NCBI RefSeq assembly: GCF_058153355.1
Contig: NZ_CM177019.1
Direction: 5' to 3' (one strand)
Length of the DNA: 64,000 nucleotides
Positions 45,832-53,680 of the stretch are shown here, piece by piece (position 1 is the first letter of the stretch; each line of letters starts with the position of its first letter). The translations under genes were made by a program, and so were the position numbers. The notes beneath the pieces were generated by a model. That model worked only from the letters and a program-made list of their open reading frames with translations, did no database searches and was not told the origin of the DNA.

Positions 45832-46830
45832 ATGAAAGTCACATTTGAGCAGTTAAAAGCAGCCTTTAATCGGGTCTTAATTTCACGCGGTGTTGACAGC
45901 GAAACGGCTGATGCCTGTGCAGAGATGTTCGCCCGCACCACCGAATCCGGTGTTTATTCTCACGGTGTTAACCGCTTCCCACGCTTCATCCAACAATTGG
46001 ATAATGGCGATATCATTCCTGACGCCCAAGCCAAACGTATAACCAGCCTCGGCGCAATTGAACAGTGGGACGCCCAGCGTTCGATCGGTAACCTGACAGC
46101 GAAAAAGATGATGGATCGCGCCATTGAACTGGCTGCCGATCACGGTATTGGTCTGGTGGCGTTGCGTAATGCCAACCACTGGATGCGCGGCGGCAGCTAC
46201 GGCTGGCAGGCGGCGGAAAAAGGCTATATTGGCATTTGCTGGACCAACTCCATCGCCGTAATGCCGCCGTGGGGCGCAAAAGAGTGTCGCATCGGCACTA
46301 ACCCGCTGATCGTCGCCATTCCTTCTACCCCAATCACCATGGTCGATATGTCGATGTCGATGTTTTCCTACGGCATGTTAGAAGTTAACCGCCTTGCAGG
46401 TCGTCAGCTCCCGGTCGATGGCGGCTTTGACGATGAAGGCAATCTCACCAAAGAACCTGGTGTAATCGAGAAAAATCGCCGTATTTTGCCAATGGGTTAC
46501 TGGAAAGGTTCCGGTATGTCGATCGTATTGGATATGATCGCTACTCTTCTTTCTGACGGCGCGTCAGTTGCTGAAGTCACCCAGGATAACAGCGACGAAT
46601 ACGGTGTTTCGCAAATCTTTATCGCCATTGAAGTGGACAAGCTTATCGACGGCCCCACCCGCGATGCCAAGCTGCAACGCATCATGGATTATGTTACTAC
46701 CGCTGAACGCGCCGATGAAAACCAGGCCATTCGCTTACCCGGCCACGAATTTACCACCCTGCTGGCAGAAAACCGCCGTAACGGTATTACCGTTGATGAC
46801 AGCGTATGGGCAAAAATCCAGGCGTTATAA
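45832..46830 (+). CDS. yiaK: 2,3-diketo-L-gulonate reductase
   Basis: 332 aa Ldh_2 family oxidoreductase; first gene of the operon. Confidence 0.88.
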
Positions 46831-46841
46831 GGAGATAAGCC

Positions 46842-47309
46842 ATGATTTTTGGACATATCGCGCAGCCTAACCCGTGCCGTTTGCCCGCTGCTATTGAAAA
46901 GGCGCTCGATTTTCTGCGCACCACCGACTTCAACGCCCTGGAGCCGGGTGTTGTCGAAATCGACGGCAAGAATATTTATGCGCAAATTATCGACTTAACG
47001 ACGCGAGATAAAATCGAAAACAGTCCAGAAGTGCATCGTCGGTATATCGATATTCAATTTCTGGCGTGGGGCAAAGAGAAAATCGGCATTGCTATTGATA
47101 CAGGAAATAATAAAATCAGCGAATCACTATTAGAGCTGCGCGATATTATTTTTTATCACGATAATGAACATGAATCATTTATAGAAATGATACCGGGTAG
47201 CTACGCTATTTTCTTTCCTCAGGATGTTCATCGACCAGGCTGTATTCTGCAAACAGCCTCTGAGATACGAAAAGTTGTGGTTAAAGTCGCATTAACGGCG
47301 CTAAATTAA
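46842..47309 (+). CDS. yiaL: YhcH/YjgK/YiaL family protein (DUF386)
   Basis: 155 aa; operon position. Confidence 0.8.
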
Positions 47310-47426
47310 TCGAATAATCGTCTACGCCAGAACGCCTGGGTAATGTTATTGCTCTAACTATATTAATAATTCAGGTTGCTGCACATGCAACTTGAATTAT
47401 GACAAACATAGCCTCAAGGAATAGCT

Positions 47427-50183: not shown

Positions 50184-51680
50184 ATGACGCAATACTGGCT
50201 GGGGTTAGATTGTGGCGGAAGCTGGCTAAAAGCCGGACTGTATGACCGCGAAGGCCGGGAGGCAGGCGTGCAGCGCCTGCCGCTGTGCGCATTAAGCCCG
50301 CAGCCAGGCTGGGCAGAGCGCGATATGGAAGAACTGTGGCAATGCTGCATGGCTGTCATTCGCGCCCTGCTTACCCATTCCAGCGTTAGCGGGGAGCAAA
50401 TTGTCGGCATCGGTATCTCCGCACAGGGAAAGGGCTTGTTTTTGCTGGATAAAAACGACAAGCCGCTCGGTAACGCCATTTTGTCCTCGGATCGCCGGGC
50501 GATGGAAATCGTTCGTCGCTGGCAGGAAGATAGCATCCCGGAAAAACTCTACCCGCTGACCCGACAAACCTTGTGGACCGGGCATCCGGTGTCGCTGTTA
50601 CGCTGGCTGAAAGTGCACGAACCAGAACGCTACGCGCAAATTGGCTGCGTGATGATGACGCACGACTACCTGCGTTGGTGTTTAACCGGCGTCAAAGGCT
50701 GTGAAGAGAGCAATATTTCCGAATCCAATCTCTACAACATGAGTCGCGGGGAATATGACCCGTGCCTCACCGACTGGCTGGGGATCAGTGAAATCAATCA
50801 CGCCCTGCCGCCTGTTGTTGGATCTGCCGAAATCTGCGGGGAAATCACCGCTCAGACAGCCGCACTGACCGGTCTGCAAGCGGGTACGCCCGTTGTCGGC
50901 GGCCTGTTTGATGTGGTTTCTACCGCACTCTGCGCCGGAATCGAAGACGAATTTACCCTCAATGCGGTGATGGGGACCTGGGCGGTGACCAGCGGCATAA
51001 CCTGCGGTTTACGTGACGGTGAAGCGCATCCGTATGTCTATGGTCGCTACGTTAACGATGGTGAATTTATCGTTCACGAAGCCAGCCCTACCTCTTCCGG
51101 CAATCTCGAATGGTTTACCGCGCAGTGGGGAGAAATCTCGTTTGCAGAGATCAACCAGGCTGTTGCCAGCTTACCGAAAGCCGGTGGCGATCTCTTTTTC
51201 CTGCCGTTCCTGTACGGCAGCAACGCCGGACTCGAGATGACCAGCGGTTTCTACGGGATGCAGGCCATTCACACCCGCGCACACCTGTTGCAGGCCATTT
51301 ATGAAGGCGTGGTGTTCAGCCATATGACCCACCTCAACCGGATGCGCGAACGTTTTACTGATGTGCACACCCTGCGCGTCACTGGCGGCCCGGCGCACTC
51401 CGATGTCTGGATGCAAATGCTGGCGGACGTTAGCGGACTGCGTATCGAACTGCCGCAGGTGCAAGAAACGGGCTGTTTTGGCGCGGCGCTTGCCGCCCGC
51501 GTCGGCACCGGAGTTTATCGCGATTTCAGCGAAGCCCAGCGCGATCAACAGCACCCGGTGCGTACCCTGTTACCGGATATGACCGCCCATCAGCTTTACC
51601 AACAAAAATACCAACGCTATCAGCACCTCATTGCCGCACTACAGGGCTTTCATGCCCGCGTTAAGGAGAACACATTATGA
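50184..51680 (+). CDS. lyxK: L-xylulose/3-keto-L-gulonate kinase
   Basis: 498 aa FGGY-family carbohydrate kinase. Confidence 0.9.
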   Translation: MTQYWLGLDCGGSWLKAGLYDREGREAGVQRLPLCALSPQPGWAERDMEELWQCCMAVIRALLTHSSVSGEQIVGIGISAQGKGLFLLDKNDKPLGNAILSSDRRAMEIVRRWQEDSIPEKLYPLTRQTLWTGHPVSLLRWLKVHEPERYAQIGCVMMTHDYLRWCLTGVKGCEESNISESNLYNMSRGEYDPCLTDWLGISEINHALPPVVGSAEICGEITAQTAALTGLQAGTPVVGGLFDVVSTALCAGIEDEFTLNAVMGTWAVTSGITCGLRDGEAHPYVYGRYVNDGEFIVHEASPTSSGNLEWFTAQWGEISFAEINQAVASLPKAGGDLFFLPFLYGSNAGLEMTSGFYGMQAIHTRAHLLQAIYEGVVFSHMTHLNRMRERFTDVHTLRVTGGPAHSDVWMQMLADVSGLRIELPQVQETGCFGAALAARVGTGVYRDFSEAQRDQQHPVRTLLPDMTAHQLYQQKYQRYQHLIAALQGFHARVKENTL

Positions 51681-52339
51681 GCAGACCACTTCTGCAACTG
51701 GCCCTCGACCACTCATCACTTGAAGCCGCACAGCGCGACGTTACGCTGTTAAAAGACAGCGTCGATATCGTCGAAGCAGGCACTATTCTCTGTTTAAACG
51801 AAGGGCTTGGCGCGGTGAAAGCCTTGCGCGAACAGTGCCCGGACAAAATCATCGTTGCTGACTGGAAGGTCGCCGATGCTGGTGAAACGCTCGCGCAACA
51901 GGCGTTTGGCGCAGGCGCTAACTGGATGACCATCATCTGCGCCGCACCGCTCGCGACGGTGGAAAAAGGCCACGCGATGGCGCAACGCTGCGGTGGTGAA
52001 ATCCAGATAGAGCTTTTTGGTAACTGGACGCTGGACGACGCCCGCGACTGGCATCGTATTGGCGTGCGGCAGGCGATTTATCATCGTGGTCGTGACGCGC
52101 AGGCCAGCGGGCAACAGTGGGGCGAAGCCGATCTGGCACGCATGAAGGCGCTTTCCGATATCGGCCTTGAGCTTTCCATTACCGGCGGGATTACGCCTGC
52201 TGACCTGCCGCTGTTTAAAGATATCCGCGTGAAAGCGTTTATTGCCGGGCGGGCGCTGGCAGGCGCAGCAAATCCGGCACAGGTAGCTGCCGACTTCCAT
52301 GCGCAAATCGACGCTATCTGGGGAGGCGCGCGTGCGTAA
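51677..52339 (+). CDS. sgbH: 3-keto-L-gulonate-6-phosphate decarboxylase
   Basis: 220 aa OMP-decarboxylase-like family member. Confidence 0.9.
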
Positions 52340-53192
52340 TCATCCGTTAGGGATTTATGAAAAAGCGCTGGCGAAAGATCTCTCCTGGCCGGAGCGGCTG
52401 GTGCTGGCAAAAAGCTGCGGTTTTGATTTTGTCGAAATGTCGGTGGATGAAACCGACGAGCGTCTGTCGCGCCTTGACTGGAGCGCCGCACAAAGGACTT
52501 CGCTGGTTGCCGCGATGATCGAAACGGGTGTTGGGATCCCGTCGATGTGCCTGTCCGCACATCGTCGTTTTCCCTTTGGTAGCCGTGACGACGCGGCACG
52601 CCAGCGAGCACGGGAGATCATGAGTAAAGCAATTCGTCTGGCGCGCGATCTCGGTATTCGCACCATTCAACTGGCGGGCTACGACGTCTATTACGAAGCC
52701 CATGACGAAGGCACGCAGCAACGTTTTGCCGAAGGGCTGGCGTGGGCGGTTGAACAGGCAGCCGCCGCGCAGGTGATGCTGGCGGTGGAGATTATGGATA
52801 CTGCGTTTATGAACTCCATCAGCAAATGGAAAAAATGGGACGAGATACTCGCTTCGCCGTGGTTCACCGTCTACCCGGACGTCGGCAACCTTAGCGCCTG
52901 GGGCAATGATGTTCCCGCTGAACTGAAACTGGGCATTGACCGTATCGCCGCCATCCACCTGAAAGATACCCAGCCAGTGACCGAGCATAGCCCCGGACAG
53001 TTCCGCGACGTGCCGTTTGGCGAAGGCTGCGTCGATTTCGTTGGTATCTTCAAAACGCTGCATGAACTGAACTATCGCGGATCATTTCTGATTGAGATGT
53101 GGACCGAAAAAGCCAAAGAGCCGGTGCTGGAGATTATTCAGGCGCGGCGCTGGATTGAAGCGCGTATGCAGGAGGCCGGATTTATATGTTAG
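52332..53192 (+). CDS. sgbU: L-ribulose-5-phosphate 3-epimerase
   Basis: ORF 52299-53192; start [12 protein letters not shown] at GTG 52332 gives 286 aa; xylose-isomerase-like TIM barrel. Confidence 0.88.
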
Positions 53193-53680
53193 AGCGATTG
53201 AAAGCCGACGTGCTGGCGGCGAATCTGGCGCTTTATCGTCGCTATGCAGAAATTGGCGGTATTGTGCATACCCACTCGCGCCACGCCACCATCTGGTCAC
53301 AGGCCGGGCTGGATCTCCCCGCCTGGGGCACCACGCACGCCGATTATTTCTATGGTGCCATCCCCTGCACGCGACAGATGACCGCAGAGGAGATTAACGG
53401 CGAATATGAATATCAGACCGGCGAAGTGATCATTGAAACTTTCGAAGAACGCGGCAGGAGTCCGGCACAAATCCCGGCGGTATTGGTGCATTCTCACGGT
53501 CCGTTCGCCTGGGGCAATAACGCCGCCGATGCGGTGCATAATGCCGTGGTACTCGAAGAGTGCGCCTATATGGGCCTGTTCTCGCGCCAGCTTGCGCCGC
53601 AGCTTCCTGCGATGCAAAACGAACTTCTGGATAAGCATTACCTGCGTAAGCATGGGGCCAATGCCTATTACGGGCAGTAA
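53186..53680 (+). CDS. sgbE: L-ribulose-5-phosphate 4-epimerase SgbE with 67-codon in-frame internal deletion
   Basis: 164 aa instead of about 231; N-terminus [16 protein letters not shown] joins directly to [17 protein letters not shown], omitting the conserved N-terminal class II aldolase segment. Confidence 0.75.

Follow-up and report, generated by a model that had tools for sequence, protein, structure and literature searches.

The window analysed here is a stretch of 64,000 nucleotides of Escherichia coli DNA (contig NZ_CM177019.1 of assembly GCF_058153355.1), and its interval 45832-53680 runs exactly from the start codon of yiaK to the stop codon of sgbE. This interval holds the operon yiaK-yiaL-yiaM-yiaN-yiaO-lyxK-sgbH-sgbU-sgbE, which is known in E. 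coli and serves the use of 2,3-diketo-L-gulonate and L-xylulose as well as that of L-ascorbate by the aerobic branch. The repressor gene yiaJ lies upstream in divergent orientation (Table 1). Each of the nine co-oriented genes pairs one-to-one with annotated RefSeq operon genes at 94-99.7% nucleotide identity, and gene set, gene order, divergent yiaJ and upstream flank (avtA-ysaA) are all those of the YiaJ/PlaR-controlled operon of strain K-12. The window differs from K-12 in a frameshift in yiaM, in the loss of 67 codons from sgbE, in a private additional A in the leader of the operon, and in the presence of an AraC-MFS-GH127 cluster between sgbE and yiaT, a cluster that K-12 presumably lacks. 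With yiaM frameshifted and sgbE shortened, the operon no longer encodes nine potentially functional products. No internal stop interrupts the other seven operon genes (yiaK, yiaL, yiaN, yiaO, lyxK, sgbH and sgbU) or yiaJ, and all of these are as long as in the reference. The top match of positions 45000-54500 among complete RefSeq E. coli genomes was 98.3% identical and split into two aligned pieces, the record spanning ~200 bp more than the query.

Table 1. Features of the yiaJ-sgbE region, with positions in the window (aa, amino acids).
Feature	Position	Strand	Remarks
yiaJ (plaR), IclR-family operon repressor	44782..45630	-	intact, 282 aa = reference length, 99.4% nucleotide identity
perfect palindrome TGAAAT-CAG-ATTTCA between yiaJ and yiaK, a probable operator for YiaJ/PlaR	45764..45778	+	read from alignment
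run of seven A (A7) in the yiaK leader	45798..45804	+	six A (A6) in seven other alleles
yiaK, 3-dehydro-L-gulonate 2-dehydrogenase	45832..46830	+	intact, 332 aa; exact protein in other E. coli
yiaL	46842..47309	+	intact, 155 aa; divergent patch at residues 56-59
yiaM start remnant, ATG AAA AAA AAT ACT TGA	47427..47444	+	5-codon open reading frame
homopolymer of eight A (A8), +1 frameshift	47430..47437	+	A7 in intact alleles
yiaM body out of frame, DctQ-family TRAP small subunit	47437..47901	+	RefSeq/PGAP: 154-aa coding sequence from ATA
yiaN, TRAP large permease	47904..49181	+	intact, 425 aa; own AAGGAG Shine-Dalgarno within the yiaM 3' end
yiaO, TRAP substrate-binding protein	49194..50180	+	intact, 328 aa
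lyxK, L-xylulose/3-keto-L-gulonate kinase	50184..51680	+	intact, 498 aa
sgbH, decarboxylase of 3-keto-L-gulonate-6-phosphate	51677..52339	+	intact, 220 aa
sgbU, L-xylulose-5-phosphate 3-epimerase	52332..53192	+	intact, 286 aa
sgbE remnant, L-ribulose-5-phosphate 4-epimerase	53186..53680	+	164 aa = residues 1-16 + 84-231 of 231
single remaining 11-bp direct repeat ATCTGGCGCTT, deletion junction	53223..53233	+	two copies in all seven intact alleles

At the beginning of yiaM the window reads ATG AAAAAAAA TACTTGAAG, with one A more than in the seven intact alleles compared, so that the A7 run behind the ATG at 47427 has become an A8 run. The frame of this ATG now encodes MKKNT and ends at a TGA, giving 5 aa in place of 157. 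A TGA at 47428-47430 shuts out upstream starts for the downstream frame, whose earliest canonical start, the GTG at 47485, opens an open reading frame (ORF) of 138 aa that lacks 19 residues, comprising most of the first transmembrane helix (TM1). Inspection of the sequence before this GTG revealed no visible Shine-Dalgarno motif, and none of the canonical starts yields the complete four-helix product with TM1. A precomputed Pfam match places the DctQ domain (PF04290) on both the 138-aa product and a 154-aa remnant product. In TRAP transporters, ~2400 square angstroms of the Q subunit are buried where it packs on the M scaffold, and its three long helices include TM1 (PMC9971032).

The 154-aa product is the one by which RefSeq usually knows the A8 allele. 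It is recorded as an intact YiaM (WP_032148054.1) whose start is an ATA that includes the last A of the run, and it is annotated in this form in the RefSeq complete genomes that contain loci L031, L033, L034 and L035 (yiaM at locus positions 643-1107 or 6643-7107). The label "frameshifted" is given to an A8 yiaM only where a second lesion exists. Initiation at AUA in E. coli reaches 0.02-3% of the AUG level (bioRxiv 10.1101/063800), and a strong ATG with a Shine-Dalgarno sequence sits 10 nt 5' of the ATA at 47437. Because initiation at AUA is weak and the strong start lies so close upstream, we judge that the ATA-start annotation masks a real frameshift. The A8 form of yiaM is a predicted loss-of-function allele.

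This allele is not confined to the window. Of 5,426 complete RefSeq E. coli genomes, 33 contain an exact match to a 71-mer carrying A8, and the sources of genomes with A8 include human, cattle, swine and rabbit farm, among others. A look-up in a large collection, for which the query was the literal V-first translation of the 138-aa ORF, found this product recorded in 71 blocks; the A8 run was present in all six loci that were fetched (L025-L030), five of which have an intact sgbE of 231 aa. The run occurs on at least two distinct yiaM haplotype families, each a single nucleotide polymorphism (SNP) away from an A7 allele, and synonymous divergence among A8 operons amounts to 0.17, a value too deep for a single recent origin. 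Either the A7 run would have been hit repeatedly or the change would have spread by short recombination tracts. In both cases A8 is a putative null allele that recurs or segregates across E. coli at low frequency. A genuine frameshift thus goes unseen in pseudogene counts and pan-genome analyses that rely on the RefSeq/PGAP annotation, and it does so in no fewer than 33 complete genomes.

Several A8 operons carry additional lesions. These include a stop codon in lyxK (L030), a frameshift in sgbU together with an sgbE split into two gene calls (L027), a yiaO pseudogene (L033; O8:H8 strain 16F5M1D1), and a second frameshift in yiaM itself (L032; strain 2013C-3342). When only fully covered operons were counted, an additional inactivating hit was present in 4 of 10 operons with A8 and in 0 of 7 with A7. 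The ratio of nonsynonymous to synonymous substitution rates (dN/dS), taken pairwise, was 0.049 within the A8 group of operons and 0.066 within the A7 group.

These patterns bear on whether A8 could still be functional. Initiation at the ATA at 47437, reinitiation at the GTG at 47485, a +1 ribosomal slip on AAA-AAA-A, or slippage of RNA polymerase on the A8 run could each in principle yield enough YiaM, in which case sgbE would be the sole real loss, with UlaF or AraD covering for it and the route partly working. Such an allele would accord with the intact WP_032148054.1 that RefSeq/PGAP reports in several complete genomes, with its persistence in diverse strains whose other eight operon genes are mostly intact at the low dN/dS given above, and with the demonstrated possibility of AUA initiation. 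However, a product at no more than 3% of the normal level would be residual at best, and the strong ATG and Shine-Dalgarno sequence would divert ribosomes into the 5-codon ORF before they could use the ATA. The GTG has no Shine-Dalgarno sequence that can be seen in front of it, and TM1 would be largely missing from its product; the further inactivating hits gained by several A8 operons, the second yiaM frameshift among them, are not what a working allele would lead us to expect. A run of eight adenines is also shorter than the length usually required for efficient transcriptional slippage. We therefore hold residual function of the A8 allele to be improbable.

The second lesion is of a different kind. 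The sgbE ORF encodes 164 aa against 231, and exactly 201 bp (67 codons) are gone in frame. In all seven intact alleles the missing stretch is bounded by two copies of ATCTGGCGCTT that lie 201 bp apart, and the loss bears the signature of a slipped-strand deletion between short direct repeats. Full-length SgbE and the AraD of E. coli (PDB 1JDI) are collinear from residue 1 to residue 231 (E=1.8e-117, 75% identity), and since the two align residue for residue, the numbering of AraD transfers and the missing segment corresponds to residues 17-83. The SgbE of the window accordingly matches AraD only in part, alignment columns 14-80 (residues 17-83) being empty. Asn28, Lys42, Ser44, Gly45, Ser74, Ser75 and Asp76 lie within the deleted segment, and His95, His97, Asp120, His171 and Tyr229 are kept in the remnant. 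In AraD, Asp76 is an active-site residue, and Asp120 and Tyr229 form the catalytic pair (PMC5434028).

An AlphaFold model of full-length SgbE, built on an alignment of 7 rows, was poor (mean predicted local distance difference test, pLDDT, of 45.8) and was used only for the secondary structure of the N-terminal part, where residues 31-80 were better scored (block-mean pLDDT ~70-86). In this low-confidence model the deletion covers four beta-strands (27-33, 38-41, 57-60 and 66-68) and most of a helix at 77-86, all of them elements of the N-terminal half of the class II aldolase fold. We take Asp76 to be also a zinc ligand, which completes a metal site with His95, His97 and His171, and we take Asn28, Lys42, Ser44, Gly45, Ser74 and Ser75 to line the phosphate pocket of AraD. 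Because residues 17-83, including Asp76, have been removed, we judge the remnant dead; a SgbE of 164 aa cannot plausibly fold or carry out epimerase catalysis.

The two lesions also differ in distribution. A look-up of the exact 164-aa SgbE sequence returned four contigs, and a fifth assembly of the same lineage was reached via YiaK. Both A8 and the 201-bp deletion are present in GCA_015332025.1, in GCA_043012465.1, and in the Logan assemblies of SRR31441161 and SRR8656992. Across the 12-20 kb compared, these four assemblies are 0-4 SNPs away from the window. The deletion was seen solely in this near-clonal lineage. All 30 of the 30 best-matching complete genomes listed gave a two-piece alignment across the junction and so have a full-length sgbE, and the junction was not found among GTDB species representatives. 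An independent lesion of the same gene exists elsewhere in E. coli, namely a -1 frameshift at nt 155 (GACCGCC -> GACGCC) in L022, L023 and L024 (sgbE at 6837-7531), which occurs on three operon backgrounds that are 2.5-3.4% apart; the collection lists the resulting 176-aa fragment in 96 of its blocks. Predicted loss of parts of the route is recurrent in E. coli, a pattern that favours its general dispensability.

The yiaM haplotype that carries A8 in the window was found with an intact sgbE in L026 and L028. Since this haplotype exists elsewhere beside an intact sgbE and the deletion is limited to one tight lineage, we infer that A8 preceded the deletion. Most likely the yiaM null came first, and sgbE was lost later, when the route was already shut.

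The reverse order can be envisaged for a route whose last step is an epimerase. The ula operon encodes paralogues of SgbH, SgbU and SgbE, and the function of SgbE is also provided by AraD; both UlaF and AraD are carried by E. coli, outside the window. The SgbE reaction is that of AraD, and the window resembles an araD-null strain in that the last step of the route is lost while the kinase is intact. If the sgbE deletion had come first, L-ribulose-5-phosphate could have built up through LyxK, SgbH and SgbU, and its toxicity could have selected the possibly polar yiaM frameshift as a suppressor. Accumulation of this compound is toxic in E. coli (PMC7269641), the yiaM lesion stands first in the stretch that encodes transporter and kinase, from where it might have polar effects on the genes from lyxK to sgbU, and the two lesions occur together in 5 of 5 assemblies of the lineage. 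Nevertheless, the finding in L026 and L028 of the same A8 haplotype beside an intact sgbE, and the common occurrence of A8 without any sgbE lesion, argue that A8 is independent of the loss of sgbE and probably older, which sets the window apart from araD-null suppressors; other lineages combine an sgbE frameshift with an intact A7 yiaM. In addition, the operon is normally repressed, so that low flux and low toxicity are expected, and the paralogues UlaF and AraD may compensate for a missing SgbE, again unlike the araD-null case. We regard a suppressor origin of A8 as very improbable.

The chance that a homopolymer miscall or a collapsed repeat explains one or both lesions is negligible: although a single-base change in a homopolymer is a classic class of error and repeats flank the sgbE deletion, the identical lesions recur in at least two separate read sets and in two NCBI assemblies that differ from the window by real SNPs, and A8 is present besides in the 33 complete RefSeq genomes. 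The lesions are not artefacts. The preliminary description of this DNA had reported two independent lesions in one operon whose other genes are intact, and in these particulars it stands: yiaM has gone from A7 to A8 and from 157 to 5 aa, sgbE has lost 201 bp (67 codons) in frame, seven genes and yiaJ are full length, and the two lesions differ in mutational type and in history. It had also stated what would overturn it, a yiaM lesion caused by sequencing and a short SgbE that works. Four other assemblies and 33 complete A8 genomes speak to the first point, and an SgbE without residues 17-83 speaks to the second; neither turned out that way.

We consider it quite likely that the operon has suffered two genuine loss-of-function mutations, distinct in origin and in date, in a known and conditionally dispensable system, within a lineage whose rate of gene loss is high. 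The yiaK-S operon is a repressed (YiaJ/PlaR) route for L-lyxose/L-xylulose, 2,3-diketo-L-gulonate and ascorbate, and it was long seen as a system for rare substrates (PMC6958661). Under this explanation, replication slippage would have added one A to the A7 run just after the yiaM start codon, and translation would end after five codons, leaving the YiaMNO TRAP transporter without its Q (small membrane) subunit. Uptake should then fail, since the M subunit depends on a scaffold to which the Q subunit contributes. The ~460 nt of untranslated yiaM may also cut transcription of the six downstream genes by Rho-dependent polarity. The A7 run would act as a hot spot at which the A8 null recurs or segregates. 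With uptake already closed, a RecA-independent deletion between the two 11-bp direct repeats would have removed codons 17-83 of sgbE, and the seven remaining operon genes would be intact because these events are recent. Where a strain has the A8 yiaM or the deleted sgbE, its metabolic reconstruction should not presume YiaMNO uptake or SgbE activity.

Several observations weigh against this explanation. The order of events is read from haplotype sharing in a recombining region, and no genome of the window's lineage with just one of the two lesions was found. Most A8 operons are otherwise intact and their dN/dS is low (0.049), a value that fits recent recurrent nulls and a still-functional A8 allele equally well, and in RefSeq itself the product of the A8 allele stands as an intact protein of 154 aa. 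The excess of secondary hits in A8 operons is not significant (p ~0.09, or 0.15 without the window lineage, both computed by hand) and is suggestive only. Finally, lineage-wide decay is extrapolated from one 64-kb window.

The density of broken genes in the window provides a background against which the two hits can be judged. The 56 annotated genes of strain R32_14_1F served as the reference set, and when they were compared with the window 6 of the 56 (~11%) proved to be disrupted; two insertion sequence (IS) elements are present in addition. Disruption affects 2 of the 9 operon genes and 4 of the 47 others (one-sided Fisher test, p=0.24), and, at the rate of disruption seen in the window itself, the binomial probability that nine genes receive two or more hits is 0.17-0.25. 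The operon hits are not an enrichment over this background. The lesions are recent and belong to a lineage that is losing genes generally, and they hold no pathway-specific signal.

Selection on the intact operon genes was examined through private substitutions and through the dN/dS of A8 and A7 operons, and neither gave a signature of relaxed selection. One synonymous private substitution was found in yiaK and three, all synonymous, in yiaN; none was found in yiaO, lyxK, sgbH or sgbU, nor in what is left of sgbE on its 3' side. The exception is yiaL, with 11 private substitutions that are clustered. Consequently, the proposal that two hits in one pathway reflect relaxed selection on the route in this particular lineage survives only in part. 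The independent sgbE frameshift and, suggestively only, the extra hits in A8 operons favour a general dispensability of the route in E. coli, and the Fisher result and the unblemished record of the intact genes speak against the proposal. When alleles were compared, as had been suggested, the sgbE deletion was private to the lineage, but the yiaM A8 was found across E. coli. Nor is the signal specific to the pathway: yhjY, yiaA, a GH127 gene and aldB are also broken in the same 64 kb.

These four genes have been lost in different ways. The gene yhjY (autotransporter beta-barrel protein, 13060-13759) carries a +1 frameshift at 13582 (CAAC|GAT -> CAACAGAT) that leaves 68 aa of 232, and its 212-aa fragment occurs on two Logan contigs, one of them from SRR31441161. 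The gene yiaA is cut after nucleotide 8 by an IS66-family element of 2,469 bp (26783-29251) with tnpA, tnpB and tnpC and an 8-bp target duplication. The last 80% of this element are 97% ISCro1-like, its first ~500 bp were unaligned in all six best matches listed, and a single complete E. coli record covers at least 80% of it; it may be a hybrid or an undescribed variant. The GH127 glycoside hydrolase gene (56164-58134) has a stop codon at residue 225 (Q225*, CAG -> TAG at 56836), which is common to loci L002-L004. It belongs to the AraC-MFS-GH127 cluster beside sgbE and represents a third carbohydrate-related loss at most 4 kb from the operon. In aldB (aldehyde dehydrogenase B, 62948-64000), a -1 frameshift at 63664 (CCAAATA -> CCAATA) is also found in L002. 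Both the GH127 and the aldB lesion thus recur in other assemblies of the lineage. The number of broken genes, together with the two IS elements, makes this lineage worth a genome-wide census of pseudogenes.

Stepwise ('domino') pseudogenisation of dispensable pathways is a feature of Shigella and other niche-restricted enterobacteria. The window is like these cases in that several independent hits fall in one pathway and in that IS elements, frameshifts and nonsense mutations are dense nearby (6 of 56 genes). It is unlike Shigella-type decay in that xyl and dpp are intact, within a comparison that covers 64 kb only, and its IS types (IS621 and an ISCro1-like IS66-family element) are presumably not those typical of Shigella.

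Homopolymer frameshifts are also known from contingency loci, and frameshifts in poly(A) runs can be rescued by polymerase slippage. The yiaM run is similar to such loci in that it changes by +/-1 in an A run at the extreme 5' end of a gene and does so on different haplotypes. It differs from them in that the run is short (7 or 8), in that A8 is present in all five assemblies of the lineage, at the assembly level, and in that no on/off mixing or rescue was seen. The tract does not therefore behave as a phase-variable one.

Taken separately, the A8 of yiaM is a recurrent hot-spot allele hidden by reference annotation and the sgbE deletion is a lineage-private event, and both are ordinary. A joint reading is more ambitious: the A7 run could be a recurrent and possibly reversible switch that shuts YiaMNO uptake and each time starts a stepwise decay downstream, concealed by the annotation, with the lineage of the window as a late-stage example and maybe itself an E. 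coli lineage so far unrecognised and at an early stage of reductive evolution, as the ~11% of genes disrupted in the window would suggest. We offer this joint reading tentatively and think it rather unlikely. Either way, the locus would illustrate how an optional catabolic route erodes, by a hot-spot homopolymer frameshift in a transporter gene followed by unrelated hits in enzyme genes, although the biological stakes are modest.

Other features of the operon and its surroundings were noted. The divergent patch of yiaL (47006-47020) was considered as a compensated frameshift, which was ruled out because loop residues 56-59 are hypervariable and differ in every allele; the patch is normal polymorphism. 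The A run in the yiaK leader has gained one private A in non-coding sequence, 28-34 nt 5' of the ATG and just downstream of the palindrome at 45764-45778. This palindrome looks like the PlaR box described in PMC6958661; the consensus as printed there had no match in the yiaJ-yiaK spacer within 3 mismatches, and a simple promoter scan of the same spacer gave no sigma-70-like site.

A mutator history was also considered as a candidate and rejected. The 44 private substitutions comprise 27 transitions and 17 transversions, with no clear mismatch-repair signature, and they cluster in recombination-like patches. Identity to complete genomes varies along the window, the best complete E. coli genome reaching only 96% over the segment from dpp to bisC (1-20000) but up to 99% over the gly-xyl-malS segment (20000-42000). 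The lineage is apparently a mosaic, with no close complete-genome relative among the 5,426 RefSeq E. coli genomes. At 41347, the window has a private 1-bp deletion relative to five other alleles, at or after the stop codon of malS (malS ends at 41345), and the length of the malS ORF is unchanged.

The second IS element is a complete IS621 (IS110 family, of the type with a bridge-RNA-guided recombinase) at 42808-44085, which lies in a repetitive extragenic palindromic (REP) sequence between avtA and ysaA. It contains a transposase ORF of 326 aa (43000-43980), has the ends TGTAT...ACAGTATCT and the flanks ATCAGGCCT and ACATCA, and shows a CT core on both sides. This copy is 99.6% identical to one in E. 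coli 2017-02-2CC, and the short-read contigs of the lineage break at this position.

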